This document shows positions 1,658-35,297 of a DNA stretch of 44,299 nucleotides, one piece after another. A model generated the notes under the pieces. That model saw only the letters and a list, made by a program, of their open reading frames with translations. It searched no databases and was not told the DNA's origin. The position numbers and the translations under genes were made by a program. This stretch comes from a virus. The stretch spans positions 1 through 44,299 of the IMG/VR virus record IMGVR_UViG_3300033150_002085. One strand, given 5' to 3'. Position 1 is the first letter of the stretch, and each line of letters begins with the position of its first letter.

Positions 1658-2176
1658 ATGGACGAGCGACCCCAACACGACGAGCCGACCGAGCGAATCG
1701 ACCGGACCGGCTGGCCCGAGCCGCCGGAGGGGCGGCGGTACCCGACCGACGAGGAAATCGCCCGGTGGAAGGCCGAAGGGCGATACCGCCCGGGGATGGA
1801 GCGGCTCCAAATGTGGGTGAAGGGCTATTCGGGCAACCCGCAAGGTCGGCCGCGGCGCAAAACGCTCACGCAAATCCTCATCGAGTTGGGCGACGAGGTC
1901 ACCGCGCGGGTCGGCGACCGCGCGCTCACCCGGACCGAGGCGCTCGCGCTGGGCCTGTGGAACGTCCTGCTGGACGCGGCCAAGCGCGGGAAGTTCCGCT
2001 CGGCACAGGTCGACATTCTCAAGCTCGTTGCGGACCACATTTCGCCGAAGCCGCGGAGCATGGAAGACCTCGATGACACCGATGACCGCCCGAAACTCAT
2101 CCGGCCGCCGTTCGCCCTGCCGACCGACCAGCCCGTGAACGGAGGCGAAGAGCACGATGCCCCTGATTGCGATTGA
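1658..2176 (+). CDS. Terminase small subunit candidate (DUF5681-like)
   Basis: Carries an SGNPQGRP motif and overlaps the TerL start by 20 nt. ATG 1658 is about 8 nt after the -10, so the mRNA may be leaderless. Alternative in-frame starts are 1649 and 1622. Confidence 0.6.
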   Translation: MDERPQHDEPTERIDRTGWPEPPEGRRYPTDEEIARWKAEGRYRPGMERLQMWVKGYSGNPQGRPRRKTLTQILIELGDEVTARVGDRALTRTEALALGLWNVLLDAAKRGKFRSAQVDILKLVADHISPKPRSMEDLDDTDDRPKLIRPPFALPTDQPVNGGEEHDAPDCD

Positions 2177-5061: not shown

Positions 5062-7714
5062 GCGGCGACGACTCGTCGTCGCGTTGGCCCATCAGCAGGA
5101 CGCTGACCGCAGGCGGCTGGAGCGGGTCGGGCTCCGCGCGGCCAACAACATCGGCCTGCGGATGCTGCGGCGCGCGACCGCGGCCTTCCGCCAGCACGGA
5201 GACCCCCTGGAACCCGTGCGTGAGCTCCTGTTGGGCGACCTCGCCGACGTCGTCCGCGACGGCATGGTGGCCGCCCACTTGCAGGGGCGGTTGCGGTCGC
5301 TGCAGGTGGCGAAGGCCTACTACAGCCGGCGGCAATACCTGAGCGTTTACTCCGACGCGCTGAATTTCCTCTACAAGCGGCTCAACGTCGGCCCGGACGA
5401 CGTGCAGCGCCTCGCCGAAACCTACAGCGAGGCGGCCATCCGGGTTTGCGGCTCGGCCAATGCCCTCCTGGAGAAGCGCGTCTCCCTGGCGATGACGCAG
5501 GCGGTCGGCACGGGTGCCCACGTGGAAGAGGGTGTCGAGCTGCTGCGAGACGCCTTCGCCGCGGCGGGCGTGACGCCGCGAAACCCCTTCTTGCTCGAGA
5601 CGATTTTCCGCACGCAGGTCCAGCTGGCGTACTCGGCTGGGCGGATGTCGGCGAACGCGGACCCGGCCATCGACGAGATTCTGTGGGGCTACGAGTACGT
5701 GACGGTCGGCGACGACCGCGTCCGTCCAACGCACGCCGCCCTCGACGGCATGCGGCTGCCGAAGGACGACCCGCGCTGGGCGGAGTTTACGCCACCGAAC
5801 GGGTGGAACTGCAGGTGCGCCATCGTCGAGATATTCGACAAGGGCACCCCGAAACCTCCGCCCGACACGATTAAGGTCGACGGCCAAGAAGTGCCGGTTC
5901 GCCCGGATGCGGGGTGGGCGTTCAATCCGGGCATGCTCTACCGCGACCTGATGGCGGTGCCCGAAGCCGCGAAGATTGGCCTCGGCTCGCTTGGCGCGGC
6001 TGAGCGGGTGCTGTCAGAACTCGGCCGCCCCGCCACGACCGACGAGATTCTAAACATTGCCATTTCTAAGGGTTATTGGGCACCTGGCGGGAAAACGCCG
6101 AAGTCCACACTCTACGCCGCGCTGATGAAGGAGGCGAAAAAGCCGGCGGGCAAAATCGTGAAGACCGCGCCCAACACCTGGGGGTTGCGGAGCGGCGCGA
6201 AGGTCGCCAAGCCGAAGGCGGTGCCGAAGGCAGCGCCGAAGGCAGCGCCGAAACCGAAACCGAAACCCGCGCCCGAGCCGGCCCCGGCTCCCGCGCCGCC
6301 CGACGTGCCTGTGGTGGAGCCCCAAACCGCGGCCGGCAAGAAGGCGGCGAAGAAGATTCGCCAGCTGGCCGAGGAGGTCGGTGTCCGCGGCGACGTCCCG
6401 GACGAGGCGCTCGAGGCCATCGCGCAGACCGTCGACGACATGAATGCACTATTCTCGAAGGCTCCGAAGTTTCGGAGAATCGTTATTGACGGCACGCCCG
6501 GGCCCGCTGGTGAGATGGCCACTTACCATTCAGCGACGGACACCATTTACATCAACGCAACCGAGATTCGGACGCGGTTTCTCGCCCTCGGCAACGACAA
6601 GCCGTGGCGGGCGTACTCGCTGCACCCGGCGTTCCACGACCAGGTCTACGCATTCGGTGAGTCAGTCGGCGACGTGGTCCGCCACGAAATCGGCCACGCC
6701 CTCTGGCATAAGCTGCCCGAGCAGGCGAAGCAGGCGTGGGGCTCGGTCCACGACCCGTCCTCGCTGCTGGGGAAGCTCTACGCCAAGAAGATGATTACGC
6801 AGTACGGTGCGACCGGCGGGCCGGCCGAGGCCTTCGCCGAGGCGTTCGCCTACTTCACGCACCCCTCGTATGGGGCTTTCGGCTCGCACAACATCATGCC
6901 GTTCCTGCCGGACGACGTGCAGGACTTTTTCCGCAGCATCCTCTACCCCCGCCTCGGCCCCGACATCGCCAACCTCAAGGCCAAGGCGTTCATCGAGGTC
7001 AAGAAGGTTGCCCAGACCGAGACCGCCGAGAAGGTGGTGAAGCACGCCGAGGAGGTCGCCAAGGCCAAGGCCAAGGCGACGACGGCCACGACAAAGGGGA
7101 AGGCGGCCAAGAAGGCCGCCAAGCCGAAAATGCCGGAGGCCGGCGAAAAGGGCCTGCCCACGCTGAGATATGGCTCGAAGGAGTTCGAGCCGCTGCCCAC
7201 CAAGAAGGCGCCCGGCCGGATGACGAAAGACGAAAAGGAGCTGCTGAAGGCCTACACGGGCGACCTCTACGAAGAGCTGAACGACGTCCTTCGCATCAGG
7301 GCCGAGGACTGCAAGCCGTTGTCGAGGCGGTGGGAAGCCACCACCGAGGCGATTCGGAGCGCCCTCTCCAAAATCAAGCCCCACCGCGGCGTCACCTGGC
7401 GGGGCATCGGCCTGCGAGGCAAAAAGAGCTTCCGCCGCATTGTCGAAAGCCACGAGCCCGGGTCGGTGCTCGTGATGGACTCGTTCTGGTCCTCGTCGGT
7501 GAGCGAACGTATCGCCGAGGACTTCGCCAAGGGCTACCCCTACAAGGTCGTTTTCAAAATCAAGGGAAAGACAGGTCGAAACATCAAGAAGTTTTCGTAT
7601 TGTCCATACGAGGACGAAATCCTCTTCGCGCCCGGGACGCGGTACCGGGTCGTCAGCAAAAAGCTTGTCATGCGAGACCCCGAGCACTACCTTATCGAAC
7701 TGGAGGAGTTGTAA
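5048..7714 (+). CDS. Polyvalent head protein: MuF/SPP1 gp7 domain + HARE-HTH-like + zincin metallopeptidase + C-terminal ADP-ribosyltransferase
   Basis: MuF motif [20 protein letters not shown]...NGWNCRC. HTH-like segment [23 protein letters not shown] at 6683-6697. ART R-S-ExE triad: R 7400-7402, SSS 7490-7498, EDE 7610-7618. AKPK/PAP and KA-rich linkers. SD AGGAG precedes ATG 5048. Confidence 0.9.
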
Positions 7715-7726
7715 AAGGAGGCGACG

Positions 7727-8038
7727 ATGGCCAAGCGCAAGCGGAAGTGGACAAAAGCCGAGGCCTACGCGGCGTTCTACAACCGGGTGTCAGGCGAGGG
7801 CGGCCGGGCTGGTTCGCAGGTGCTGGTTTCCGCCAGGCTGGGAACGCCAAAGTGCTTCTTGCGCGGTTGCCGACATTTCCGCGGCGTTCGCCTGTTCGGC
7901 GACGATGAGCATACCGAGCGGAACGTGTGTGATGCCTTCCCGGATGGCATCCCAGACGAAATCGCTTACGGCGACAACCCGCACACGGAGCCCTACCCCG
8001 GCGACCACGGCATGCGCTACCTGCCGCCGGAAGAATAG
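7727..8038 (+). CDS. Hypothetical protein
   Basis: 103 aa with SD AAAAGGAGG upstream. No family recognised. Confidence 0.65.
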   Translation: MAKRKRKWTKAEAYAAFYNRVSGEGGRAGSQVLVSARLGTPKCFLRGCRHFRGVRLFGDDEHTERNVCDAFPDGIPDEIAYGDNPHTEPYPGDHGMRYLPPEE

Positions 8039-8061
8039 GGCAATTTGAAAACGAAAAGCGC

Positions 8062-8091
8062 TTGACAGCCCCGGGGGTGCGGCCCGAGAAT
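8062..8091 (+). promoter_or_regulatory. Possible sigma70-like promoter before the protease-capsid genes
   Basis: -35 TTGACA (8062-8067), 18-nt spacer, -10 GAGAAT (8086-8091). An A-rich stretch GAAAACGAAAAG lies upstream. Confidence 0.45.
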
Positions 8092-8119
8092 GCCACCGTA
8101 GCCGAGGCACCTGTGGACC

Positions 8120-9751
8120 ATGCCATACCCGAACGAGCACGCGGCTCGCCTTCGACCCCCTTCGGGGTTTGTGAGGTTCCGGCGGAAAAACGACGCGTTC
8201 GGGCCTGGCATTCACGCCATTTACGGCGTGACAAGGGAGGGCAAGGCGGTTCTCCAGTCGCTGCGCTTCGACGCATCGCGGTTCACGGCGGATGAGGCGC
8301 GGCGGTGGTTGCGGGAGCACGACTACAAGCCTGTCGAATTCGCCCCAGCGTCGAAAGAGGCTGCGATGCAATTCGCCGTGTGGACGCGAAAATACATCAA
8401 CGACCTGCCCGACTCGGCGTTCCTCTACATCGAGCCCGGCGGCAAGAAGGACGAGGAGGGCAAGACGACCCCGCGGTCGCTGCGGCACTTCCCTTACAAG
8501 GACGCCTCCGGCAAAGTCGACCTGCCCCACCTTCGAAATGCCCTCGCTCGCATCCCGCAGTCGAACCTGCCGCAGGACGTCAAGGAGCGCGTGACGGCCA
8601 AGGCCCGCAAGATTCTCGAGCGCGCCAAGGAGCGGGCCGGCCTCGCCATTCTCTCGCCGGACTCTTCCGACTTCGAGGCTGCGTCCTCGCCCGCGGAGCG
8701 CGAGGGGTTCCAGGTCCAGAAGTTCCGGAAGGAGCTCATCCGCGAGGGCACCTACACCCACCCGGTGCACCAGTGGACGCTGAACGTCGACGAGGACCGC
8801 ATGCGGCGGTGGGTGGCCACGTTCCGCGAGATGTCAGCCGCCGGCGTGCACGTGCCGGTGAACGTCGACCATAACCATTCCGCGAAGGCGGTGGTCGGCT
8901 GGGTCACCGACATGTTCATCGAGAACGGTCGGCTCATCGGCATCCTGGAAATGCGCGGCGACGAGGCCATCAGCCTCGCTCGCCGAAATCGCTCGGTAAG
9001 CATCGAAGTAGCTAAGAACGTCAAGGACGGCAAGGGCAACACGTGGGAAGAGGCCATTGTCGGCTGCGCGGTGGTGTGGGACCCCGTCGTGCCGGCGCAG
9101 ACCGGCTTCGTTCCCGTCGCAGCGTCGCTGGGGTCCGCTCGCACGCGGATGGCCCCCCTCTACGTGATGGCAAAGGAGACCATGATGGACGAGAAACTGA
9201 AAGCCGAACTTGTCAACGTGCTCGGCGACAGTGCCGACGTGGACACCGCCGAGGCTGCCGTGCAGGCGCTGATGGAGCGGGTCAAGCAGCTGCAGACCGA
9301 AATCCGCAGCCTGCAGGACCAGGCGGAGGCCGCCAAGAAGAAAGCGGCGTCCCGCACCGGCGCACCCGACACCAGCGACGTGGACCCCGACGCCGCCGAG
9401 ATGCTGGCCGAGGCCACCGAGGCGAAACTCGACACGCTGGTCGCCGCCGGCAACATCACCCCCGCGGTCCGCGACAAGCTCGCCGAGGTGCTCGTGGGCA
9501 AGCCCGGGCAGCGAAACCTCTACTGCCTCAGCCGGAAGGTTTCGGGCGAGGCCACGCCTCTGGCGCGGCAGGTCATCGACATCCTCAGCGAGAACCGACC
9601 GCAGGAACTGCGCACGCTGACCGGCGTGCAGGCGCTGTCCCGGAACGTGCCTGGCGACGGCGACGACAGCGTCGACCCCGACATCCAGAAGGAGATGGTC
9701 ATGATGGCCATGGGCGGGGTCGCCGAAGCCGAGAAAGACAAACAGGGTTGA
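8120..9751 (+). CDS. Head maturation protease / scaffold fusion (Mu gpI-like by context)
   Basis: 543 aa. Repeated N-terminal PNEHAAR/DLPDSAF segments and a C-terminal coiled-coil scaffold-like half. Lies upstream of the decoration and capsid genes. Confidence 0.65.
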   Translation: MPYPNEHAARLRPPSGFVRFRRKNDAFGPGIHAIYGVTREGKAVLQSLRFDASRFTADEARRWLREHDYKPVEFAPASKEAAMQFAVWTRKYINDLPDSAFLYIEPGGKKDEEGKTTPRSLRHFPYKDASGKVDLPHLRNALARIPQSNLPQDVKERVTAKARKILERAKERAGLAILSPDSSDFEAASSPAEREGFQVQKFRKELIREGTYTHPVHQWTLNVDEDRMRRWVATFREMSAAGVHVPVNVDHNHSAKAVVGWVTDMFIENGRLIGILEMRGDEAISLARRNRSVSIEVAKNVKDGKGNTWEEAIVGCAVVWDPVVPAQTGFVPVAASLGSARTRMAPLYVMAKETMMDEKLKAELVNVLGDSADVDTAEAAVQALMERVKQLQTEIRSLQDQAEAAKKKAASRTGAPDTSDVDPDAAEMLAEATEAKLDTLVAAGNITPAVRDKLAEVLVGKPGQRNLYCLSRKVSGEATPLARQVIDILSENRPQELRTLTGVQALSRNVPGDGDDSVDPDIQKEMVMMAMGGVAEAEKDKQG

Positions 9752-9813
9752 CGAAAGGCTCGCCGCGCTGGACAATCCACCCAGCGGCGCAGTCGTGCTA
9801 AGGAGGACATGAG

Positions 9814-10515
9814 ATGGCGAACACGCCTGGTGTGCCTGGCATCGGAACCACCCGAACCGCCCAGTACCGCAAGGTGCTGCTGACCGACCGCGGCGCGGTC
9901 TACCTGCCTGGCGGCAAAGTCATCAAGGGGTCGGCCAGCCGCGACCCGGGCAACACGGGGTATGTGCATACCCTGCGGCCTGGCATTCTGCTCGGCAAGC
10001 GGACCAGCGACGGGAAATACGCCCCGTCGGTCATCGGTGCGCTGACCACCGCATACAGCGCGAGCAGCGACGGCACGTCGCTGACGGTCCCGACCGCGGT
10101 GGCGACCGAAATCGCCCGCCGCCTGACCGTGGGCACCGACGAGATTCAGATTTGCGGGCCTTCCAGCGCGGGCGGTGCGGTCAGCAGCGAGCACAGGGTC
10201 GTCAGCGCGGTCAACACGGCGACCGGCGTGGTCACGCTTGCCAGCGCGCTCACGAACGACTACGTGGTCGGCTCGCTGGTCCAGCCCTACGACGGCTCGC
10301 AAACCCCGCTCGGTCTCTTGCCGGACGGCTACGGCATCAAGGTGACCGATGAGGACGAGAACGACATCGACGTCGAGCTGCCGCAGCTGCTCATTGGCGG
10401 CGTCGTGGACGCCTCGCAAATCATCAACTACACCGACGAGGCGTCGGTGCAGGCCCAAATCAAGAGCTGGCTCCGCACGTATGGCGTCGGCTGGGCCTTC
10501 GACGACGACTTCTGA
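9814..10515 (+). CDS. Head decoration protein candidate
   Basis: 233 aa. Sits directly upstream of the major capsid gene in a lambda D-E-like order. SD AAGGAGG. Confidence 0.55.
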   Translation: MANTPGVPGIGTTRTAQYRKVLLTDRGAVYLPGGKVIKGSASRDPGNTGYVHTLRPGILLGKRTSDGKYAPSVIGALTTAYSASSDGTSLTVPTAVATEIARRLTVGTDEIQICGPSSAGGAVSSEHRVVSAVNTATGVVTLASALTNDYVVGSLVQPYDGSQTPLGLLPDGYGIKVTDEDENDIDVELPQLLIGGVVDASQIINYTDEASVQAQIKSWLRTYGVGWAFDDDF

Positions 10516-10590
10516 GCCTCCACTGCTGAAGGGTAGTCCACCCCTCCGTGGGTAGCCGAGGCACCGGAGGGAACCGGAAAGGAGAAAACC

Positions 10591-11667
10591 ATGCCCGCAA
10601 GTTTGAGGCAAATTCTCGGCGGCGAGAACCTGACCGGTGTCATCCAGTCGGTCAAGTCCGGCATCCCCGATGTTCTGCCGCCGGCGTTCATGCGGACGCG
10701 GCGGACGGTCGAAGGGAACACCGCCACCTACTTCCGCGTGAAAGGCATCCGCGAGACCGCGCGGCAGACGGCCTACGGGGCCCCGAGCCGACAGCGAGGC
10801 CAGCAGGAGCTGGTCGAGGTGCCGGTGACCCTCATCCACGTGCTGGAAAGCATGTATCACCAGCCGTGGGTGCTGCAGAACCTGCAGGCGGTGGGGTCCG
10901 AGGCGAAGCAGAAGCTCGGCCGCCAGGAAATCGCCCGGCAGACCGCCGAGTTCAAACGGCTCCTGACGAACACGCGGCTGGCCGCCATCTACTCGATGCT
11001 GGCCAAGGGTGCCATCTACTTCGACGGCGACGGCAACCTGCTCCCCTCGTCCAGCGGCGCTGCCATCACGGTGGACTATGGGGTGCCGAGCGGCAACAAG
11101 GACCAGATTGACGACTGGGACACCGCGACGACCGACATCATCGGTGCCATCAACGACCTGAAGAAGACCTGCGTCCAGAAGACCGGCTACCCGCTGCGGC
11201 ACGCCTTTTACGGCGAAAGCATCCTCGGCCTGTTCCTGGCGAACACTTACGTCAAGGAGCTCATCAACAACAACCCGTCGATGGCCGAGGCGGCCTACGG
11301 TCGCGGCGAAATTCCCGACGGGTTCTGCGGGCTGCGGTGGTGGCCCGTCTACCAGTCGTTCTACGTGGACAAGGACGGGAACGTGCAGACGTTCTTCGGC
11401 GCGAACCAGGTCGTGTTCACCCCGGAAATCAACGCCGACGTCTACGAGCTGCTCGAGGGCACCTACCCGGTCCCGACCGACATCGGCCGCGTGGCCTCGG
11501 ACGCCCAGGCGGCCCTCGGCCAGGTTCGGATGGTGTCGGGGCAGTTCTCCTACGCCATCGTGACGGCCGACCCGGTGACCATCAAGCAGGTCGCCGGCGA
11601 CACGTTCCTGCCGGTGTGGAAGAACCCGGACGCCATCTTCATCGAGTCGGACGTCACCAGCTCGTAG
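10591..11667 (+). CDS. Major capsid protein (lambda E-like family)
   Basis: 358 aa. SD GGAAAGGAG. Followed by a hairpin terminator. Position in the head module supports the call. Confidence 0.8.
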   Translation: MPASLRQILGGENLTGVIQSVKSGIPDVLPPAFMRTRRTVEGNTATYFRVKGIRETARQTAYGAPSRQRGQQELVEVPVTLIHVLESMYHQPWVLQNLQAVGSEAKQKLGRQEIARQTAEFKRLLTNTRLAAIYSMLAKGAIYFDGDGNLLPSSSGAAITVDYGVPSGNKDQIDDWDTATTDIIGAINDLKKTCVQKTGYPLRHAFYGESILGLFLANTYVKELINNNPSMAEAAYGRGEIPDGFCGLRWWPVYQSFYVDKDGNVQTFFGANQVVFTPEINADVYELLEGTYPVPTDIGRVASDAQAALGQVRMVSGQFSYAIVTADPVTIKQVAGDTFLPVWKNPDAIFIESDVTSS

Positions 11668-11728
11668 AGCAAAATCGAATGGCCTCCTCGCGGCGGTACT
11701 CTGCGGCCCTGAAGCCCTGCTTCAGGTT

Positions 11729-11772
11729 CGGCCCGGCGGTCCCCGGTTCGCCATGCGGCCGGGGGCCGTTTT
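11729..11772 (+). terminator. Rho-independent terminator after the capsid gene
   Basis: GC-rich stem CGGCCC...GGGCCG followed by TTTT. A second small hairpin CCTGAAG/CTTCAGG lies at 11708-11726. Confidence 0.5.
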
Positions 11773-11789
11773 GCTGATGGGAGCGCGCC

Positions 11790-12200
11790 ATGGGCAACTA
11801 TATCGACAGCACCTACCTCGCCACCATGTTCGGCGAGGACAACATCCTCGCGTGGTCGGACCTCACGAACGCCTCGGAGATTGCCGACTCGGCGCGGATT
11901 GCGGCGGCCATCAACTGGGCGGAGGCGCAAATCGACGACCGCTTCAGGCGGTCGAGGTGGGAAGTGCCCCTCTCGGGGCCGCCCGAGGTGGTGAAGGTGT
12001 GGGCGGCGAAGCTGGCGGTGGTCTACCTCCTGCAAGACCCCCGGTTCATCGCCAGCGAGACGGCTCGCGAAACACGCGAGGCGTTCCTGCAGGAGGTTCA
12101 CAACGAGATGGCGTCCTACCTCAGCGGCAGCCGCGAATTTTCGGCCACGGAGAACGGGACGCACCCGACCTCGCCGGTGGTCGTCGGTGGCGACGAGTAG
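11790..12200 (+). CDS. Head-tail connector protein (DUF1320/Mu gp36-like)
   Basis: 136 aa. The N-terminus YIDSTYL...AINWAEAQID resembles DUF1320 proteins. Position after the capsid supports the call. Confidence 0.6.
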   Translation: MGNYIDSTYLATMFGEDNILAWSDLTNASEIADSARIAAAINWAEAQIDDRFRRSRWEVPLSGPPEVVKVWAAKLAVVYLLQDPRFIASETARETREAFLQEVHNEMASYLSGSREFSATENGTHPTSPVVVGGDE

Positions 12201-12206
12201 CCACAG

Positions 12207-12380
12207 CGCCTAGACCATATACAGGGGATTTTTTCTGGCGACCTGAAAGTGGGCGAGTACCTATTCTAGGGGTCTAGGTGCCCCTAAACCACGTACTGGC
12301 GCGGACTTACACATAGACCGCGAATTCTAATATCGGTCTAGGAGTCTATGCGAAGACGAAATCGCCAATAGTTGCGTGGC
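12207..12380. repeat. R1: AT-rich intergenic module with multiple (G/A)GTCTAGG boxes, paralog of 38169..38343
   Basis: Aligns along its whole length with R2. A 29-bp core TAGACCGCGAATTCTAATATCGGTCTAGG is identical (12314-12342 = 38277-38305). The 3-prime ends CGAAATCGNCAATAGTTGCGTGGC are shared. Confidence 0.9.
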
Positions 12381-12433
12381 AAAGTGGCCGGGCCGGGCCT
12401 GGCCGTATGAGTGCCTCAGTATAGGCGCAAGCC

Positions 12434-13090
12434 GTGGAGCCTGTGGGCCAGCACTACGACCGCTTCAGGGGCCAGACCGCGACCGTGGTCGGCTGTGGCC
12501 CGACCACCTTCGAGTATGCCGCCGGCTTCCAGGGGCTGCTGGACGGCCCCGTCCTCTTCGTCAACGATGCCGTGCAGCTCGAGCGACACGTCCCGCCTGA
12601 CGTCCCCACCTTCTTCTTCGCGTTCGACCGCCGCCAGCGCGTGTGGCTGCGACCAGCGCTTCGCAGCACGCCCGTCCTGGCTCGTCGCCCTGACCTGCTG
12701 GAGCGGCGGCTTCGCCCGCCGTGGCCGCACCTCTTTGTCGAGGACGGCGACGCCGCGGCGGTCGAGGACCGGCTCGTGTGGTATGACATCCTGCGGCTGA
12801 CCGACGACGCCCTGAAGGCACGCCGCGAGGAGGTCGCCAAGCGGAACATGCTCGTGGTCGGCGGCCTCAGCACGACGTGCACCGCCCTTGCCTACGCCTG
12901 GCTGGCAGGCGTGCGGGCGGTGCGGTTCATCGGATGCCGCGGTGTGGGCCAGGGCCACGACGGGCGTCTCTGCGACGCCACAGGCGGCAAGACCCTCCCG
13001 GGACATTACGCGAAGGCAAGGCGGGCGCTGGACCAGATGGTGCACGCGTTTCGCCTCGAGGCCTGGCACTGGACGGAGGAGCCGAGATGA
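12434..13090 (+). CDS. CstII/Maf(DUF115)-like glycosyltransferase-domain protein, paralog 1
   Basis: 218 aa. TVVGCGPT...PVLFVNDA and AYAWLAGVRAVRFIGC segments are clearly paralogous to the N-terminus of the next gene. GTG start, ATGA-type coupling to the next gene. Confidence 0.7.
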   Translation: MEPVGQHYDRFRGQTATVVGCGPTTFEYAAGFQGLLDGPVLFVNDAVQLERHVPPDVPTFFFAFDRRQRVWLRPALRSTPVLARRPDLLERRLRPPWPHLFVEDGDAAAVEDRLVWYDILRLTDDALKARREEVAKRNMLVVGGLSTTCTALAYAWLAGVRAVRFIGCRGVGQGHDGRLCDATGGKTLPGHYAKARRALDQMVHAFRLEAWHWTEEPR

Positions 13091-14985
13091 GGACGCTGCA
13101 GCACTACGTGAACCGCTACGCCGGACGGCAGTGGGTCATCGTGGGTAAGGGGCCAACGATGCTTCGCCCGGAGACCCTCGCTGACGTCACGGGCCCCGTC
13201 GTTTTCCTGAACGAGGCCGTGCAGTGGAGCCGGTATGCCGTTCGTGCGGTCGAGCGGTTCTGGTTCGCGCACGACGTCGGGATGATGCCGCTCGCCAGGA
13301 ATTCCGACGTCCGGCGGTGCACGCCGGTCCTGCTCGGCAAACCGGAGAAGTCGCGAATGGGCGAGAAGCCCCTGCTCTCCTGGGAGGGGCTGAGGGAAGC
13401 CGGCATTACCCCGCCGGCAGAAGCCGTGGCCTACCAGGGCGAGTGGTGGCCCGTGGATGACCTTCCAGGGGAGCGTGACCGGTTTGGGGTGGCCGCGAGG
13501 GGAGCGCTGTGGTTCGCCGCGGGGACTGTGCATTCAGCCATCAGTTTCGCCTGGCTGGCGGGCGCGTCCGGCATCGTTTTCGTGGGCTGCGACGGACGGC
13601 CCGGCGGCTACGACGACCGCCTCGATACGCGGCAGTCGCAACCCGCCACCGACGCCACCTACGCGAAGATTCGCCGCCTGCAGGACGAGGCTTGTAAGGC
13701 CTGGCGAATCAAGACGACTTACCTCTATGCGACCCGCGTGCCGCCCGAGCAGTCGCCGGTCCCCCCGCAAATCCACGTCGTGTGGATGCCGCCCGAGAAG
13801 GACCGTGGCGTCGGCAAGCAGGTGATGCGCCGCCTCAGCCGGCTTCGCATCGCTGCGGCCCGCCACGACATCGACGTCCACGTGTGGCACAACCCCGTCA
13901 AGGAGTCGGGCACGCCGCCCGCCGTTCTCCGCCGCATGGCTGACCTGCCGTTGCGATGCCAGCAGGTGGACCTTTGGCGGCTGTGGCTGCTCTACCGCTA
14001 CGGCGGCATCTACATGGACGTCGACATGCGGCCGGTCGGCGACCTGTCGCTGCTCCGTCGCTGGCCCTTGGCGGCGGCTCGCCAGTCCGACGGGCGGGTG
14101 AATAACGCCGTCATCGCCGCCGAGCCTGGCCATCCCGCCCTGGCCGCGGTGCTGGACGCGGCGCTGAAGGAGCCGCTCGAGGCCCGCGCGTCGCTCGGCC
14201 CGAACCTGCTGACGCGGTTCGCCGAGACCGAAGACCCCTGGACGCTGTGGGCGGAGTGGCTGGTCTACCCGTTCCAGTCAGCCGGGGTCCTGGCGTCCTG
14301 TTCGGACGTGGAGGCCTACCTGGCGAAGTTCCCTCAACGACCTGTCCTCCTGCACGAGTGGGGCATCGGGGGGTCGGGCAGGATGCCGTCATTCGGCCGC
14401 GGCGACGCGTGGCTCTATCGCCTGGGTGCGAGGTTCGGGCGCAGCCCTCTGCGGCTGGCGGAGGTCGGCGTGCTGGCCGGACGGCTGTCGCAGTACATCC
14501 TCGCCCGCGGAATCATCGAGAAGTATTACATGGTCGACGTGTGGCGGGTGCCGCCGCCCGACAGTCGCTACGCGAGGTCCGGTGACGCCGTGGCCGAGAT
14601 GTCCGAGTCCCAGATGCGGAAGACGCGGGAGGACGCCCTGGCCCAGGCCAGGAAGTTCAAACCGTGGACGGCGGTCCTGGAGAAGCCGTCGGTCGAGGCG
14701 GCCAAGGACGTGCCGGACGGTTCGCTGGACAGCGTGTTCATCGACGCAGACCACACATTCGAGGGGACTCTGGAAGACCTGCGAGCGTGGGCACCGAAGG
14801 TGCGCCCGGGCGGCCTGCTCGCCGGGCACGACTGGGAAAGCCCGGCTGACCCTGGCTGGCCGGACAACCCGCGATGGGGAGTTCGCCAGGCGGTCGAGGC
14901 GTTCTTGGCGGAGCAGGGGTGGCCCGCGGACGGCATCGAGCTTGGAGGGGAGACGACGTGGTTCTACCAGGTGCCGTGGCGATGA
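13087..14985 (+). CDS. Three-domain enzyme: CstII/Maf-like transferase + DXD glycosyltransferase (Gly_transf_sug-like) + class I SAM methyltransferase (Methyltransf_24-like)
   Basis: 632 aa. N-terminal VIVGKGPT...VVFLNEA...FAWLAGASGIVFVGCDG. Middle WRLWLLYRYGGIYMDVDM, with DVD at 14017-14025. C-terminal FIDADHTFEGTLEDLRAWAPKVRPGGLLAGHDW. Confidence 0.85.
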   Translation: MRTLQHYVNRYAGRQWVIVGKGPTMLRPETLADVTGPVVFLNEAVQWSRYAVRAVERFWFAHDVGMMPLARNSDVRRCTPVLLGKPEKSRMGEKPLLSWEGLREAGITPPAEAVAYQGEWWPVDDLPGERDRFGVAARGALWFAAGTVHSAISFAWLAGASGIVFVGCDGRPGGYDDRLDTRQSQPATDATYAKIRRLQDEACKAWRIKTTYLYATRVPPEQSPVPPQIHVVWMPPEKDRGVGKQVMRRLSRLRIAAARHDIDVHVWHNPVKESGTPPAVLRRMADLPLRCQQVDLWRLWLLYRYGGIYMDVDMRPVGDLSLLRRWPLAAARQSDGRVNNAVIAAEPGHPALAAVLDAALKEPLEARASLGPNLLTRFAETEDPWTLWAEWLVYPFQSAGVLASCSDVEAYLAKFPQRPVLLHEWGIGGSGRMPSFGRGDAWLYRLGARFGRSPLRLAEVGVLAGRLSQYILARGIIEKYYMVDVWRVPPPDSRYARSGDAVAEMSESQMRKTREDALAQARKFKPWTAVLEKPSVEAAKDVPDGSLDSVFIDADHTFEGTLEDLRAWAPKVRPGGLLAGHDWESPADPGWPDNPRWGVRQAVEAFLAEQGWPADGIELGGETTWFYQVPWR

Positions 14986-15563
14986 GGCGTTGGGCGGCCG
15001 TTTCTAACGGCCCCAGTGCGGCCCTGTTCGATTATTTCGGCGGCGTCGACAACTATTACGAGGCCGTCGTCGGGGCCGGCAGAACGCCAACGACGTGGCG
15101 ATGCGACTGGTGGGCGGTGGCCGACGCGAAGCAAATCGTCGAGCTGCAGGACCGCGTTCTCGGCACGCCCCGCATCGTCACGCGACGCCTGGCCGTCAGC
15201 CGACTCCCGCCGTGGATGCGTGGAATGGCTGCGTCCTGGCTGCTCTGCGAGGACATCGCGCAGTCGGGGCTGACGCGGCTCGGGCCGGATGGGCGGCCGG
15301 ATGCATGGTGGACCTGGAGCGGCCTCATCGCGCTGGGGGCCCTTTGGGCGCTGGTGCCGCGTGGGGCCGAGGTTCACCTTTTCGGGTTTGACATGGCGGG
15401 ATGGGCGGACTATCGTGAGGCAGGGCCAGGCGGCTTCCGCTCGCCGGAGCGGTGGGTGCGGGAGCGGGCATTGGCGGCGTGGCTCATCCGACGCATCCAC
15501 CGAGACCGCGGCGTGCGTGTCCGGAGAATCCGAAGTGAAGCCGACCTTCCACGTCAAGGTTGA
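14982..15563 (+). CDS. Divergent third CstII/Maf-like paralog
   Basis: 193 aa. ATGA overlap with the previous gene. AAVSNGPSA and GAEVHLFGFDMAG echo the GxGPS and hhhhGxD motifs of the two upstream paralogs. Confidence 0.6.
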   Translation: MRRWAAVSNGPSAALFDYFGGVDNYYEAVVGAGRTPTTWRCDWWAVADAKQIVELQDRVLGTPRIVTRRLAVSRLPPWMRGMAASWLLCEDIAQSGLTRLGPDGRPDAWWTWSGLIALGALWALVPRGAEVHLFGFDMAGWADYREAGPGGFRSPERWVRERALAAWLIRRIHRDRGVRVRRIRSEADLPRQG

Positions 15564-16056
15564 CCTCTCGCCTCTCGCCAAGTTCACGCGTGCCATTCGG
15601 CGTGCGGAGCTGGTGGATGACCCCGGCAACCCCTTTGCCATCATGTTCAAACAGTGGGGTGCGAGGTACCTCGCCTTCGCTCGCCGCCGATTCGTGAAGA
15701 TGAGCCGCGGCGGCTGGCCGCGGCTGAAGCGTGCCCGACGCCACCGCCGCGGCCGCCGCGAGCGCGCGGCGGTCCTGCGGGACACCGGCACCCTCTTCGG
15801 GGCCCTCACGCCAGGTGCGCCGGGTAACGAGTTTCGCCGAATCCCCCGGGCCATCCGCGTGGGCTACGGCGGGCCGCATCGGCACCCGAAGGGGCGTGCG
15901 ACCATCGCCGACATCGCCTCGTTCCACCAGACGGGTGCTGGGCACCTGCCGAAACGTGAAATCATCGTCCCGCCAGACCAGCGGACCATCCGTGGCATGA
16001 TTCGAGACGGCAAGCGGGCGCTGCGGCGGCTGGCCGAGATGTGCGAAGGGAGGTGA
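15535..16056 (+). CDS. Virion morphogenesis / tail completion protein (Mu gpG-like)
   Basis: 173 aa from GTG 15535. The segment IASFHQTGAGHLPKREII is typical of the phage virion morphogenesis family. The start is uncertain. Confidence 0.65.
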   Translation: MKPTFHVKVDLSPLAKFTRAIRRAELVDDPGNPFAIMFKQWGARYLAFARRRFVKMSRGGWPRLKRARRHRRGRRERAAVLRDTGTLFGALTPGAPGNEFRRIPRAIRVGYGGPHRHPKGRATIADIASFHQTGAGHLPKREIIVPPDQRTIRGMIRDGKRALRRLAEMCEGR

Positions 16057-16059
16057 CGC

Positions 16060-16548
16060 ATGCCCGACCCGTTCACCGAGGTCTACGACACCGTGTGGGC
16101 GGCGCTGGAGGCATCGTCGGAGGTTACCAGCCGGGTGGCCTTGCGCAACCGCATCAAGTTCGCCAGCGCGACCGAGACGCTCAGCCGCGACCCGCGGAAG
16201 CCTGGCTATCAGCACGGCGACTTCCCTCTGCTGGCCCTGGAACCCGCGGGCGACGAGATTGACCTCTGCTCGGACAGCACGTCCTGCCGCCTGATGCAGC
16301 AGCTGCGGCTGACGTTGATGAGCGGCGACCTGCGTGCGAGCGCCCAGCTCTACCCGCTGAAGTGGGCGATTATCAAAGCGCTCATTGACAAAGGCCCGAC
16401 GCTCGGGCTATCCTACGTCACGGACGTCCGGGTTCTGTCGGTGGACGACCAGCAGCAGGAACTCGAGGACGACGTCGGCCCGGCGCAGTGGACGACCGTG
16501 GCCGTGATTCAGGTGCGGATGGAGTTCGACCGTCGCAGCCTGCCGTAA
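16060..16548 (+). CDS. Neck / tail-completion protein candidate
   Basis: 162 aa. Tight spacing within the structural operon. No family assigned with certainty. Confidence 0.6.
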   Translation: MPDPFTEVYDTVWAALEASSEVTSRVALRNRIKFASATETLSRDPRKPGYQHGDFPLLALEPAGDEIDLCSDSTSCRLMQQLRLTLMSGDLRASAQLYPLKWAIIKALIDKGPTLGLSYVTDVRVLSVDDQQQELEDDVGPAQWTTVAVIQVRMEFDRRSLP

Positions 16549-16560
16549 GGACGAGACCGC

Positions 16561-17079
16561 GTGGACACGCTGACCGCAACCGCGACCATCCGGCTGTCCG
16601 TCATTGGCGGCAAGACGTTTGCGACCGGCCTCTCTGCGCCACGGGATACCATTTCGGTTCAGGAGTCGCAGGCCTATTCTTACGGGACAGGCAGCGACGA
16701 GGCGGACGGCGAGTGGGCAAAGGTTTTCAGTTTCGGGTCGAGCGGCGGCTCCGAGAAAATTGGCCTGGACTCGCTGACCGACGCCTTCGGCGACGCGCTG
16801 ACAGTTGCGAAAATCAAAGCGATTTACCTGCGTGCGCCCGAGGACAACGCTGATAGCGTTCTCGTGGATGCGCGAGACACAGCCATAAGCAATGGTTGGT
16901 GGGGGGCGCCGTGGCACGCCACGTCGGATACGACTGGCGGCTACCTGAAGCTGGAACCAGGCACCACCGTTTTATTCACCGACCCGAATGGCTGGAATGT
17001 CTCGGCGGGCAATGAGCTGGTCATCCTCTCGACGAGCGCGGCGAGCCTGGAAATGGTGCTAATCACGAGCAGCGCATAA
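16561..17079 (+). CDS. Hypothetical structural protein
   Basis: 172 aa with a GTG start after SD AAGGACGAG. Lies between the neck and tail tube genes. Confidence 0.6.
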   Translation: MDTLTATATIRLSVIGGKTFATGLSAPRDTISVQESQAYSYGTGSDEADGEWAKVFSFGSSGGSEKIGLDSLTDAFGDALTVAKIKAIYLRAPEDNADSVLVDARDTAISNGWWGAPWHATSDTTGGYLKLEPGTTVLFTDPNGWNVSAGNELVILSTSAASLEMVLITSSA

Positions 17080-17089
17080 GGAGCATGCC

Positions 17090-17485
17090 ATGACCGGAAC
17101 CGGCGGAAGTGTGAAGGTGGACGGGGTCGAAGTGGCCCGCGTCCGCAACTGGTCGCTCACCAGGACCGGCAACGTCCAGACCTACTCGGACTCGTCCACG
17201 CCTGGCCAAATGAAGCGCGAGGCGGGCGTCAAGGACTGGACGGCGACCTGCCAGGTCTACGTGGAGGACAACGTGGCTGGCAGCGGCGGCGGCGAGTTTC
17301 CCTTCGAGGAGGGCGACTCGGTCTCGCTGGAACTCAACGTCTCGAGCACCGTCAAGTGGACCGGCGACGCCGTCGTCGAGGAGATTGCCGGCCCCGAGGT
17401 GGACATCGAAGGCGGGTCCATCGTTGGCGCGACCATCACGTTCGGTGCAAACGGCGCGCTGACCCCGCCCAGCGGGCAGTCGTAA
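17090..17485 (+). CDS. Major tail tube protein
   Basis: 131 aa. SD AAGGAGC. Sits directly upstream of the chaperone/tape-measure pair. Confidence 0.7.
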   Translation: MTGTGGSVKVDGVEVARVRNWSLTRTGNVQTYSDSSTPGQMKREAGVKDWTATCQVYVEDNVAGSGGGEFPFEEGDSVSLELNVSSTVKWTGDAVVEEIAGPEVDIEGGSIVGATITFGANGALTPPSGQS

Positions 17486-17504
17486 CAGCTGAAAGGGCCG
17501 AACG

Positions 17505-18056
17505 ATGACCGATTTGCCTGAAGCATCGGCGGCAGGCCAGGACGTGACGGTCGGCGGTCGCACCTACCGCATCGGCCGCCTGGACTACGGGAGCCTGGGC
17601 GAGTTCACTCAGTGGGTGCGGTCGCTGGTCATCGACGCTGCCAGGCGTGCGGCGGCCAACACCGCTTCGCCTGACGAGAAGGCGCTCCTGCTCGACCGAG
17701 CGCTCGAGCGGGCCAGCCGAATCACCCTGATTTCCCGCGAGGTGTTCAGCACCCTGCGGGAGCCCGAGGCGATGGTTCGGCTGGCGTGGCTGGCCCTCCG
17801 CCGGCACCAGCCTGACCTTACGCTGGCCGAGGTCTATCGTCTCTGCGCGGACCCCGCCACGATGGAGACGCTCGTCAACGCCACGATGGACCTCAACGCG
17901 GACCTGTTCGGGCTGCGTGAAAAAAAAGGGACGGGGACGGCGGCGGACACGACGCCGGCGACGCCGGAGACGCCGTCGACCTCGTCGGACGTCAAGACTT
18001 CGGAGCCGTCTACCGAGCCCTCGCAGCCGAGTACGGATGGCCCCCAGAAGTCGTAA
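17505..18056 (+). CDS. Tail assembly chaperone (G-like, zero-frame product)
   Basis: 183 aa. Located between the tube and tape-measure genes and contains the slippery A-run. Confidence 0.7.
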   Translation: MTDLPEASAAGQDVTVGGRTYRIGRLDYGSLGEFTQWVRSLVIDAARRAAANTASPDEKALLLDRALERASRITLISREVFSTLREPEAMVRLAWLALRRHQPDLTLAEVYRLCADPATMETLVNATMDLNADLFGLREKKGTGTAADTTPATPETPSTSSDVKTSEPSTEPSQPSTDGPQKS

Positions 18057-18226
18057 ATCGCCTGACGCCTGAGCAGGTGGCGATGTATCTCTCGGGTGCC
18101 GGGCGGTCGTCGAGCGGCGCGGCCGCGTTCGCCGGCCGCACCCTCGGCCGCCGGACCGTCCAGTGTTCCTCGCTGGCCGAGGCGAGGGTGCTCGCCGCGG
18201 AGTTTCGGGCGCGGCGAAAGCGATAG
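17505..18226 (+). CDS. Tail assembly chaperone frameshift product (G-T-like; joins 17505..17927 to 17927..18226)
   Basis: Hand translation of the -1 frame gives ...EYGWPPEVVNRLTPEQVAMYLSGAG...EFRARRKR, which looks like coding sequence. The arrangement matches the conserved tail-chaperone frameshift. Confidence 0.55.
17921..17927 (+). promoter_or_regulatory. Programmed -1 frameshift slippery heptamer A_AAA_AAA
   Basis: The zero-frame codons are GAA AAA AAA GGG. The -1 frame has a stop at 17918-17920 and is then open from 17921 to TAG 18224-18226, just before the tape-measure start. Confidence 0.65.
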
Positions 18227-18235
18227 GGTGTGTCG

Positions 18236-20377
18236 ATGTCTCGACTCGGCAGCGTCCAAATCGCGTTCGGGGCCGAAACGAGTGGCCTTTTCCGGGCATC
18301 GGCCAGCGTCGAGCGCCGCCTCCAGAAGCTCGGCCAGGTGGTCGAGAAGATTGGCCGCCGGGCGCAGTACGCCTTCATGGGGCTTGCCGGCGGCATCGGA
18401 TACGCCATCAAGCGCGCGGGCGACCTCGCCGAGGAGATGAATAAGTTTCAGGCGGTGTTCGGCCCGCAGGCCGACGAGATGGCCAAATGGGCCGACCGCC
18501 TTGGCGAGGCGCTCGGGCGGACCGGCACCGAGCTGAAGCAGGCACTCGCCACCTACCAGTCCTTTTTCGTGGGGCTCGGATTCGGCGCGGAAGAGGCCGC
18601 GAACCTCAGCCGCATCATGTCCTCGCTGGCTCTCGACTTCGGGTCGTTCTACAACGTTTCGGACCCCGAGACGCTGCAGCGCTTCATCAGCGCGATGAGC
18701 GGTTCGGCCGAGGCCCTGGACCGGTTCGGCATCAACCTGAAGCAGGCAGCGCTGAACCAGGAACTGCTCGCGATGGGCATCGAGGGCGGCACGGCCAAGG
18801 CCACCGAACAGCAAAAGGCCCTTGCCCGCCTTCGCATCCTCTACAAGGTGATGACCCGCCAGGGCGCGCTTGGCGACGCCATTCGGACACACGACAGCTT
18901 CGTCAATGTGATGCGGGCGCTCTGGTCGCAGACGAAAAGGGCCGTGGCGGCACTGGGCGAGCAGTTCATTCCGCAGGTGCGTGCGGCCGCGAAGTGGCTG
19001 GCCGGCCTGGCCAAGCGCATCCAGGAGATGACCCCGCGCCAGTGGGAAAGCGTGAAGGGCTGGATTGTATTCGGCGGCAAGCTGCTGCTCATCAGCGCAA
19101 TTGTCCCCCGTGTGGTTCGTGCCTTCCAGACGCTGATTGGGGTGCTGAAGACGTTTGCCGCCACGCAGGCGGTCGTCAACGCCCTCTCGGGGAACTGGAT
19201 TATGCTGGCGGCAGGCGTGGCCGCTGCGGTCGGCGCGTGGGCGACCATCGACTACGTCATCGGCAAGCTCGACGCGGCTGCGACGTCCACCGAGGACGCC
19301 ACCGACGCCGTCGAGGAGTATCGCGAGGAGATGGAGGAGGCCGCGAAGGCGGCCGACAAGCTGGCGTCCAGCCTGGGGACCACAGCGTCCGCGTCTCGCA
19401 AGCTGGAACAGCTGGCGGAGCAGACCCAGTTCACCCGCCTGGTCGAGACAGCGAAGTGGGCGCGCGACCAGTTCGGGCGGCTCCAGAAGATTGAGACGGG
19501 CGGGACGCTCTACGTTTCGCCGACCTTCACGTCGGGCAAGGAAATCGGCGAGCTCCTCCAGAAGCTCGACGAGCAGGTGGACCGGCTGCAGTTCTCGGAG
19601 GAGGAGCTCTTCCGGCAGCGCATCGACGCCCTGCGGCGTGAGCAGGCCGAAATCCGCGAGTACCTGCAGACGGAGGAGTCCCGGCTGACACTGAGCGCCG
19701 AGGCCAGGCGGGAGCTCGAGCGGCGGGCGAACATGATTGACGGCATCATCGCCCGCGCCGAAAAAATCGCCGAGCTGACCGAGAAGCAGAAGCAGGCCGA
19801 GGAGGAGGCTCGTCGCGAGGAGGAGCGGCGGGCCGAGGCCCAGCAGCGGATGGCCGAGGCTCAGCGCGACTTCGCACAGGCTCAGCAGGAGTATCTCCGC
19901 GAGGCGGAGCGTCACCTGCCGCCGCTCATGCGTGAGCAGAGCCGGTTTAACCGCGAGCGCAACGCGCTGCAGCGGCGGATTCGCCAGGCGACCGGCGAGG
20001 AGAAGACCACCCTCGAGGCCACTCTGCGCTACCTCGAGAAGGTCCACGCGATTCGCAAGGCCGAAATCCTCGCCGAGGAGAAGCGAAAGGCCATCACCGA
20101 GCAGGTCGCCGAGGCCGAGAAGGCCATCCAGGAGCGGCGTGCCCAGGTCCGCCGATTCGCGCTGCGGGCAGTCCACGAGCAGGTCCAAATGGCCGTTCTG
20201 CGTGAGCCGGAGAACCGCCAGCTTCAGGCGCTGAAGGAAATCCGCAACCAGCTGGACGCCGTCCAGCGGCGTGACGCGAAGGACCGGATGAAGGCCCTCG
20301 ACACCCTTGCCCAGAAGCTGGAGGAGGTCATGAAGGATGCCGGCCTGGTGGCGGTCGCGGCAGGAGGCACAGCATGA
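18236..20377 (+). CDS. Tape measure protein
   Basis: About 713 aa. Hydrophobic central segment and a long coiled-coil C-terminal half. Position supports the call. An in-frame GTG at 18230 is also possible. Confidence 0.85.
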   Translation: MSRLGSVQIAFGAETSGLFRASASVERRLQKLGQVVEKIGRRAQYAFMGLAGGIGYAIKRAGDLAEEMNKFQAVFGPQADEMAKWADRLGEALGRTGTELKQALATYQSFFVGLGFGAEEAANLSRIMSSLALDFGSFYNVSDPETLQRFISAMSGSAEALDRFGINLKQAALNQELLAMGIEGGTAKATEQQKALARLRILYKVMTRQGALGDAIRTHDSFVNVMRALWSQTKRAVAALGEQFIPQVRAAAKWLAGLAKRIQEMTPRQWESVKGWIVFGGKLLLISAIVPRVVRAFQTLIGVLKTFAATQAVVNALSGNWIMLAAGVAAAVGAWATIDYVIGKLDAAATSTEDATDAVEEYREEMEEAAKAADKLASSLGTTASASRKLEQLAEQTQFTRLVETAKWARDQFGRLQKIETGGTLYVSPTFTSGKEIGELLQKLDEQVDRLQFSEEELFRQRIDALRREQAEIREYLQTEESRLTLSAEARRELERRANMIDGIIARAEKIAELTEKQKQAEEEARREEERRAEAQQRMAEAQRDFAQAQQEYLREAERHLPPLMREQSRFNRERNALQRRIRQATGEEKTTLEATLRYLEKVHAIRKAEILAEEKRKAITEQVAEAEKAIQERRAQVRRFALRAVHEQVQMAVLREPENRQLQALKEIRNQLDAVQRRDAKDRMKALDTLAQKLEEVMKDAGLVAVAAGGTA

Positions 20378-24751: not shown

Positions 24752-24859
24752 AATGGACGATGCCGATGGCGAAGCGCCTGATGGAGACCGTGAAGGAGTA
24801 CACGCCCAAATACGCGCCGGACGTGGCGCGTGAACTCGAGAAGGGAAAGGAGGCCGACA

Positions 24860-35013: not shown

Positions 35014-35297
35014 AAGTCACCGAACGCGAAGCCGACGAGGCACTGGTCCCGGCCGAATGGCACGACCCGCAACCGCGGCACGTCGCCGAACGCGCCCTGA
35101 CCGCCCTCATCCAGTGGGGCTACGAGCGCACGAAAGACCTCGACGAGACCACCCGCTGGGTGTTCAGTGAAGCGCACGCCGTCCTGCTCGATGCGGTGAG
35201 CCGCCTCGCCGACGAGGAAGCCGCCGAGCGGCCGAACGAGGGGCTGATGGAGGCCGTCCAGGCCTACCTCGACGACACGCGAAACGTGCTGGAATGA
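34998..35297 (+). CDS. Hypothetical protein
   Basis: 99 aa from ATG 34998 with SD GAGGAGGGAGG upstream. Confidence 0.5.
   Translation: MRDRLKVTEREADEALVPAEWHDPQPRHVAERALTALIQWGYERTKDLDETTRWVFSEAHAVLLDAVSRLADEEAAERPNEGLMEAVQAYLDDTRNVLE

Follow-up and report, generated by a model that had tools for sequence, protein, structure and literature searches.

Virion glycosylation by phage-encoded enzymes is known from a few mycobacteriophages. Papers citing Freeman et al. 2023 attribute it to phage-encoded transferases in cluster F1 phages (Che8, Rita) and in cluster O (Corndog). Cluster O mycobacteriophages carry three glycosyltransferase genes and an O-methyltransferase gene, through which capsid and tail-tube proteins are modified, according to PMC11600133 (citing Freeman 2023). 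In the literature found, actinobacteriophages are the only documented case of phage-encoded virion glycosylation, and antibody recognition is altered by it there. A second relevant system is that of the Maf proteins, which O-glycosylate flagellin with nonulosonic acids and whose central domain, pfam01973, resembles Cst-II (PMC11339370). The reference list of the same paper includes a report that Maf glycosylates flagellin before export (Parker 2014). Here, a three-gene cassette at 12434-15563 of the virus record IMGVR_UViG_3300033150_002085 is described, in which putative relatives of Maf are combined with a glycosyltransferase (GT) and a methyltransferase (MT) domain. The window analysed is the complete JGI contig of 44,299 bp, with ~67% GC. 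Gene A encodes a stand-alone DUF115/MptE-like domain, gene B a fusion of its paralog, termed domain X, with the GT and MT domains (X-GT-MT), and gene C a compact and remote DUF115-like protein.

The cassette is interpreted, with moderate confidence, as a system that adds a methylated glycan to virion proteins in the cytoplasm; this glycan may contain a host-made sialic-acid-like sugar. What is new is the enzyme family, which has not previously been tied to phage particles. In the papers searched, phage particles were linked neither to DUF115/Maf-like enzymes nor to nonulosonic acids.

The cassette in related phages

The strongest functional evidence comes from the context of the cassette in other phages, which, as read from gene order, favours a virion protein over DNA as the target. 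In L005, L006/L007, L036, and L037, the adaptor gene of the window is shared and directly precedes the cassette. L005 and L006/L007 also share the head genes of the window, with the large terminase (TerL), portal, and major capsid protein (MCP) being ~45-48% identical. Right after the adaptor, L005, L036, and L037 have an X-GT-MT gene, and L006/L007 have a split pair of X and GT-MT genes plus a second X. A gene C homolog stands behind a gene B-like gene in L001, L003, and L037, the last of which has the order adaptor, X-GT-MT, a 301-aa gene, gene C-like, and Neck1. Equally close relatives, L015 and L018 (MCP 49-50% identity), are without the cassette and run from the adaptor directly to Neck1. 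The cassette is therefore accessory, yet it stands in a fixed slot. The recurrence of similar cassettes at the same place in related phages makes a sugar coating of the virus particle their most likely product.

This synteny bears out the first-pass annotation of the window, which described the cassette as interrupting an otherwise canonical gene order. Its further suggestion of a moron-like insertion fits the absence from L015 and L018, but not the other features of the locus: a simple scan of 11600-16200 found no intrinsic-terminator-like site, gene C overlaps the Neck1 gene, and the same slot recurs in lineages that are only ~45% identical. Likewise, triplication of the DUF115-like domain holds for the window phage but not in general, as relatives carry one to three copies, fused or split.

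Gene C-like proteins also occur in other head modules. The order in L009 and L025 is capsid, cement protein, and gene C-like, followed in L025 by a gpZ-type tail-completion gene and in L009 by a gene encoding a GT-A domain with PF05159 (Capsule_synth). In L028, the gene C-like gene comes after a GT2, an NAD-dependent sugar-nucleotide epimerase/dehydratase, and a methyltransferase-like open reading frame (ORF). In L010, a NeuA-type cytidylyltransferase (5279-5986) directly precedes a gene C-like gene (5938-6426) within a Mu gpT-type head module, an arrangement also seen in L011, L034, and L035. The best PDB match of the L010 cytidylyltransferase is the cytidine monophosphate (CMP)-Neu5Ac synthetase 1eyr (E 4e-18, full length). 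Going by gene neighbourhood, this suggests a CMP-nonulosonic acid as the donor.

Some cassettes contain additional genes. That of L036 has a second Methyltransf_24, a GT-B-type transferase (Glyco_trans_1_2), and a sulfotransferase, and PF03567 sulfotransferases stand at the end of the X-GT-MT cassettes of L004 (8014-8700) and L036 (4617-5195). The glycans of such cassettes may be sulfated in some phages. Neither megablast of 8000-20000 nor tblastn of the MCP found a cultured phage relative of the window, and its TerL relatives are ~25% identical and come from many hosts.

Domain families of the cassette proteins

Judging from sequence and models, domain X forms a divergent branch within the MptE-like/DUF115 (PF01973) superfamily. 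Word-indexed searches found two relatives of gene B and none of genes A and C, and no usable family assignment for genes A and C came from Pfam, NCBIfam, or PHROGs. When 1.84 billion cluster representatives were searched exhaustively with a profile, however, 209 relatives of domain X emerged. A Pfam scan of 150 members found PF01973 (MptE-like, formerly DUF115/Maf_flag10) in 22, with a best E of 2e-9. Among ten distant members with a GxGPSL motif, nine match PF01973, which is the sole match for eight. One of the family, P0138, was found by the domain X profile at E 5.9e-7 among the 1.84 billion proteins and itself matches PF01973 at 35.2 bits against a cut-off of 34.6, over profile positions 17-165 of 171. 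PF01973 is also the sole, weak Pfam match of the gene C-like proteins of L008 and L009 (E 0.0075 and 0.022). The remaining domains of the 150 members include Gly_transf_sug (26), TcdA_TcdB (16), Caps_synth (10), Methyltransf_24 (9), and Nucleotid_trans (7), and domain X is further fused to GT2, GT9, TylF, and several methyltransferase families.

The AlphaFold2 model of gene A (predicted local distance difference test (pLDDT) 90.3) is consistent with this placement. Against BFVD, whose targets here are automatically annotated predicted models, it matches viral proteins annotated as MptE-like with a TMq of 0.55-0.60 and a probability of 1.0, the best match overall reaching 0.65, and viral GT29 sialyltransferases and a DUF115 protein stand lower down the list. 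Against the PDB, the best TM-scores are 0.38-0.42 (E 0.017-0.087) and belong to the GT29 sialyltransferases 5bo9 (0.42) and 2wnb (0.38), and thiamine pyrophosphokinase 3lm8 reaches 0.37 with a probability of 0.75. TIM-barrel aldolases and epimerases, although ranked at the top for this model, have TM-scores of 0.22-0.35 with a root-mean-square deviation >8 Å and were dismissed as alpha/beta-repeat noise. The DUF115/Maf resemblance noted in the first-pass annotation is thus right at the level of the superfamily. For the GT42/CstII resemblance noted alongside it, this search gave no support at the level of family membership: CstII is missing from the top 50 PDB matches, and GT29 enzymes score highest.

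The sole cellular genome match for domain X is a Phycisphaerales metagenome-assembled genome (1.87-Mb contig, L013), which is a weak hint of a Planctomycetota host range for the family. Two domain X copies (9839-10600 and 11317-11993) lie there in an apparently non-phage chromosomal locus, next to a GT-like gene and genes for secreted proteins. A frameshift or sequencing error divides the second copy between two frames. A metagenome scan with the domain X pattern found one short contig.

The three DUF115-like domains of the window had been described as mutually paralogous. Gene A and the N-terminus of gene B are close, with 33% identity over ~210 aa (BLASTP, E 9e-20). Gene C has no significant match to domain X by BLAST or the family hidden Markov model in HMMER, but a profile of its family (gene C and five relatives from other contigs) aligns to the profile of 98 domain X members over 167-175 columns (hhalign probability 96%, E 6e-9). 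The paralogy claim is right, with one remote copy that is linked by profile-profile alignment only.

The pattern given for these domains, GxGP(T/S)...hhFhN(E/D)A...hhhhG(C/F)D, needs small corrections: gene A has GCR rather than GCD, and gene C has SNGPS and is without the near-invariant Asn. Domain X of gene B retains GKGPT, N42, FAHD, GCDG, and YDxR, its sole deviation being H153S; the close gene B homologs P0002 and P0003 retain His153. Compared with the 98 family members, gene A deviates by G146S, H153A, D169R, and Y175H, at columns that include His153 (86% conserved) and Asp169, the D of GCDG (82%). From these substitutions, gene A may be a pseudo-enzyme or have altered specificity. Gene C retains all 18 columns that are invariant in the five-member alignment of its family but has lost the AVNRA Asn; this residue is 98% conserved in domain X and is retained by the other four gene C members.

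The other two domains of gene B are assigned directly. PF04488 (Gly_transf_sug) matches residues 268-320 (6.1e-10, 40.1 bits against a cut-off of 23), and PF13578 (Methyltransf_24) matches residues 459-583 (5.5e-14, 53.4 bits against 26.3). The AlphaFold2 model of gene B, built from a 150-sequence alignment, has a mean pLDDT of 92.3, with ~95 in the domain X part. Compared with the PDB by Foldseek, the top 50 matches of the full model are only methyltransferase and GT-A, hiding the N-terminal domain. Among them, the GT part matches Och1 9n3s (GT32) and the Legionella glucosyltransferase SetA 8x4k. The top matches of the MT part are the rhamnosyl 4'-O-methyltransferase SpnH 4ce0, MeT1 6g80, and MycF 4xvz (E ~1e-6), with cation-dependent O-methyltransferases also among them, and a weak sequence match to MeT1 spans the FIDxxH region. 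The DXD glycosyltransferase and the Methyltransf_24-like domain of the first-pass annotation are thereby confirmed, the latter with a class I methyltransferase fold, and all five of its enzyme-domain calls across the cassette stand. The PHROG label for the C-terminal domain, "DNA methyltransferase" (phrog_2675), looks like an annotation artefact because the fold matches small-molecule/sugar and cation-dependent O-methyltransferases.

Gene structure and expression

The coordinates first annotated for the cassette are exact, and its three coupled genes are flanked by a Mu gp36-like adaptor upstream and phrog_26 Neck1 downstream. Genes A and B overlap as ATGA, as do genes B and C, and the end of gene C extends 29 nt into the Neck1 gene (GTG 15535). 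The third-position GC content (GC3) of genes A and B is 0.82-0.87, typical for coding sequence in this genome. No transmembrane-like segment is present in genes A, B, and C (maximum 19-residue Kyte-Doolittle mean 1.3-1.7), in line with the earlier annotation, and the models of genes A and B are globular. A promoter scan of 11600-16200 gave a single promoter-like site, which lies within gene C and is uninformative. PADLOC returned no defence-system match for the cassette. A cytoplasmic substrate and a reliance on activated sugars of the host, both anticipated in the first-pass annotation, are consistent with these data.

Proposed function and alternative explanations

The acceptor, the donors, the order of steps, and the benefit are proposals, set against the gene structure, domain families, folds, accessory status, and same-slot recurrence described above. 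Soluble phage-encoded glycosyltransferases, with or without an O-methyltransferase, in a structural block are what virion glycosylation would call for, and the cassette has them in its domains, position, and conserved slot. The cassette would be an accessory, late-expressed module of the head-neck block, working in the host cytoplasm during particle assembly. It would attach a short methylated glycan to virion proteins, with the capsid, a capsid-surface protein, or neck/tail subunits as likely targets. In the first step, one or more DUF115/Maf-like domains (the N-terminal domain of gene B, gene C, and perhaps gene A) would take a sugar from an activated donor made by the host and transfer it. 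Given the analogy with Maf and the NeuA-type gene beside the gene C homolog of L010, this donor is probably a nonulosonic or ulosonic acid in CMP-activated form. The GT32-like DXD domain would then add a hexose from a nucleoside diphosphate (NDP)-sugar, and the Methyltransf_24 domain would O-methylate a sugar hydroxyl. Given the loss of one or more highly conserved residues in each DUF115-like copy and the translational coupling of the three genes, the copies may perform different parts of the work or may form a complex with non-catalytic members. In a broader and more tentative proposal, many uncultivated tailed phages would coat their capsids with sialic-acid-like, maybe methylated or sulfated, glycans through a hitherto unrecognised, phage-specific Maf/DUF115 branch encoded in the head-neck block, with the three diverged copies of the window phage forming a division-of-labour complex for glycan assembly on a virion protein. 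Phage particle glycosylation would in that case have gained both a chemistry and an enzyme class that are new to it, and adsorption, aggregation, grazing, or immune recognition would be affected.

Several observations weigh against glycosylation of the virion by these enzymes. The phage is uncultivated. None of the three cassette proteins matches PF01973 even at E<=1 (gathering score 34.6 bits), searches of PDB sequences with the domain X profiles and P0138 found nothing, and the top 50 PDB fold matches of the gene A model contain no Maf and no TM-score >0.42. All three DUF115-like copies deviate, in their sequences, at highly conserved positions. PF01973 also includes the pterin pyrophosphokinase MptE, after which it is named, and the transferase activity of domain X is for this reason putative. 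Among the window ORFs scanned, none was recognised as a sugar-nucleotide gene, as already stated in the first-pass annotation. A Ser/Thr-rich C-terminal extension of the MCP that tracks the presence of the cassette was not found, MCP C-termini being alike with and without it. Finally, the spacer with a repeated module before gene A, described below, could be the mark of a separate transcription unit.

That spacer, with its regulatory look, would also suit a cassette directed at the host rather than the virion. The enzymes would then modify cytoplasmic precursors of lipopolysaccharide, capsule, or S-layer glycans, or else a host protein, for example flagellin or pilin, leading to superinfection exclusion, receptor masking, or a lack of progeny re-adsorption to debris. 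Conversion genes are often accessory and missing from close relatives, as this cassette is, domain X is also found in the apparently non-phage Phycisphaerales locus, and its family has capsule-type partners (Caps_synth, Capsule_synth). Modification of the host is nonetheless considered unlikely. The proteins have no membrane segment or signal peptide, no integrase or lysogeny function was recognised among the ORFs scanned, and the overlap of gene C with Neck1 implies late expression, when changing the surface of a dying cell would be of little use. The head-neck position is moreover fixed across ~45% identical lineages, and in others the relatives lie beside cement proteins. The same location, with the cassette in the head-neck block and its relatives next to capsid and cement genes, speaks against glycosylation of the phage DNA, in which a methylated sugar on a modified base would evade restriction. 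Phage glycosyltransferases that hypermodify DNA are known (Pyle 2024, as cited in PMC12619734), the cassette proteins are cytoplasmic, and phrog_2675, which matches the MT domain, bears a DNA methyltransferase label. As the MT fold resembles small-molecule and sugar O-methyltransferases instead, three ordinary DNA methyltransferases in the replication region already cover DNA methylation, and the 44-kb contig showed no gene for a base-hydroxymethylase, a deoxynucleoside monophosphate kinase, or another hypermodification enzyme, DNA as the target is very improbable.

Two further explanations turn on the DUF115-like domains themselves. They might be nucleotide-dependent kinases or pyrophosphokinases, as MptE is, or non-catalytic binding or scaffold domains. 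The cassette would in that case serve to make or modify a small molecule or sugar nucleotide, and a glycan would be the substrate of the GT-A and MT domains only. The naming of PF01973 after a pterin pyrophosphokinase, the presence of 3lm8 among the PDB matches with better TM-scores, the lack of a direct PF01973, GT42, or Maf match, and the deviations in all three copies, with four in gene A, are in keeping with this. Its probability is nevertheless low given that family members recur as fusions to or neighbours of glycosyltransferases, sugar methyltransferases, sulfotransferases, and a CMP-sialic-acid synthetase, that the highest TM-scores in the PDB belong to GT29 sialyltransferases, and that viral sialyltransferases appear in the BFVD list. 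The same deviations, together with relatives that do without the cassette, could mean that the motif-degenerate copies (gene A, and gene C without its Asn) are decaying relics with no current function in the window phage. This is the least probable of the explanations weighed here, considering the intact ORFs, the coding-like GC3 of genes A and B and the confident models of both, the precise ATGA overlaps, and the retention of the gene B and gene C pair in L001, L003, and L037.

The upstream spacer and other features of the window

The features of the morphogenesis region are listed in Table 1. Exact copies of GGTCTAGG in the window are restricted to 12209-12342, within the spacer before gene A, and to 38172-38305. 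The two spacers (12195-12440 and 38165-38405) are homologous across their whole ~240 bp and share identical 29-nt and 24-nt blocks, which include TAGACCGCGAATTCTAATATCGGTCTAGG. Each copy ends at a GTG start, that of gene A or that of a VRR-NUC gene at 38400. The repeated spacer resembles a duplicated regulatory module and may be a regulatory element before the cassette. A check for non-coding RNA found no Rfam family match for the upstream copy, and the spacer is absent in cassette-bearing relatives.

Table 1. Features of the head-neck region of the window and of the cassette (positions in the window).
Feature	Position	Strand	Remarks
Large terminase (TerL)	2157-3611	+	Part of morphogenesis block
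Portal	3592-5061	+	Part of morphogenesis block
Mu F/SPP1 gp7-like minor head protein	5033-7714	+	Part of morphogenesis block
Protease/scaffold	8120-9751	+	Part of morphogenesis block
233-aa protein without assigned role	9814-10515	+	Part of morphogenesis block
Major capsid protein (MCP)	10591-11667	+	Part of morphogenesis block
Head-tail adaptor (Mu gp36-like), upstream slot boundary	11790-12200	+	PF07030 1.2e-10; phrog_195 head-tail adaptor
Spacer, 233 bp, with GGTCTAGG (CTAG) boxes	12201-12433	+	One of two module copies
Gene A, stand-alone DUF115/MptE-like domain, 218 aa, GTG start	12434-13090	+	Domain X paralog
Gene B, 632 aa	13087-14985	+	Three domains: X, GT, MT
Gene B residues 1-225, DUF115/MptE-like domain X	13087-13761	+	Profile search; family members matching PF01973
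Gene B residues ~228-430, GT-A of GT32/Gly_transf_sug type	13768-14376	+	PF04488; Foldseek
Gene B DXD (D311-V-D313)	14017-14025	+	Motif YGGIYMDVDM starts at residue 305
Gene B residues ~437-632, S-adenosylmethionine-dependent Methyltransf_24 domain	14395-14985	+	PF13578; Foldseek
Gene C, compact remote DUF115-like protein, 193 aa	14982-15563	+	hhalign 96% to domain X
Tail-completion/Neck1 gene, GTG start, downstream slot boundary	15535-16056	+	phrog_26 2.9e-05

The relative L014, which has no cassette homolog in the stretch covered, carries a different 2.7-kb insert between MCP and adaptor (9085-11766). The insert encodes a 657-aa protein that closes with a (PT)n repeat, and it also has an ORF of 120 aa in which a hydrophobic stretch was recognised by eye. 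The L014 homolog of the window gene at 9814-10515 (7161-7946) also has a (PT)n tail. Accessories of the capsid surface thus seem to accumulate in the interval from MCP to neck.

Elsewhere in the window, three DNA methyltransferases are encoded in the replication part (33635-34462, 35294-36217, and 42018-43367). The types represented are a C5-cytosine enzyme (motifs DLFCGCGG, PPCQGF, ENV), a D12-class N6-adenine enzyme, and a ParB-N-terminal fusion with an N6_N4 methylase. An Amidoligase_2 gene (PF12224, 8.6e-29) lies on the minus strand at 359-1297, upstream of the terminase genes. A SNF2-type helicase (~25870-27498; DECH box, from the translation) follows a DUF932 protein (24830-25852, 4.7e-50); the GC3 of its ORF is just under the filter threshold and it was found on inspection.

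Comparison with known systems

The actinobacteriophages offer the closest functional parallel. Like the cassette, their virion glycosylation relies on cytoplasmic phage glycosyltransferases, with an O-methyltransferase in cluster O, involves no membrane step, and draws on activated sugars supplied by the host. The sequences are unrelated, however, and the key enzymes of the window are DUF115/Maf-like rather than of the classical GT2/GT4 type. A tblastn search of gene B against 50,697 GenBank phages gave no actinobacteriophage match; only the MT part matched, in cyanophages, one archaeal virus, and uncultured phages. The genes of F1 phages lie near the right end of the genome, whereas the window cassette lies between adaptor and Neck1. 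Virion glycosylation is documented for the actinobacteriophages, whereas for the window phage it is predicted.

Maf appears to belong to the same superfamily as domain X, on transitive sequence evidence and fold, and both are soluble and cytoplasmic. As with Maf, the substrate of the cassette would be a self-assembling structural protein that is modified before it assembles, and the NeuA-type neighbour in L010 suggests that it too would use a CMP-sugar donor. In contrast to Maf, the window proteins fall below every PF01973 threshold and consist of single ~200-aa domains or the X-GT-MT fusion, without the N- and C-terminal domains of Maf (described in PMC11339370). The predicted acceptor is a phage protein, not flagellin. 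CstII (GT42) and GT29 enzymes share with domain X a Rossmann-like alpha/beta fold and an N-terminal GxGPS/T loop, but the TM-scores are <0.5 with E >0.01 and the sialyl-motifs or catalytic His are not mappable.

The other domains of gene B have clearer counterparts. The middle domain resembles GT32 (Och1) and TcdA/TcdB/SetA-type enzymes in its PF04488 match, DXD motif, and structure, differing in that it sits fused between a DUF115-like and an MT domain. The C-terminal domain resembles sugar O-methyltransferases of the TylF/MycF/SpnH/MeT1 type in its PF13578 match and top structural matches, although identity is only 12-21% and the domain is part of a three-domain phage protein. In comparison with the described systems, the cassette and its relatives suggest that virion glycosylation is much broader among environmental phages, via a different enzyme family at a fixed head-neck slot. 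If this is confirmed, ~200 orphan protein clusters would gain a function, soluble protein-glycosylating enzymes would become available for glyco-engineering, and a DUF115-like gene between head and neck genes would serve as a metagenome marker for glycan-coated particles.

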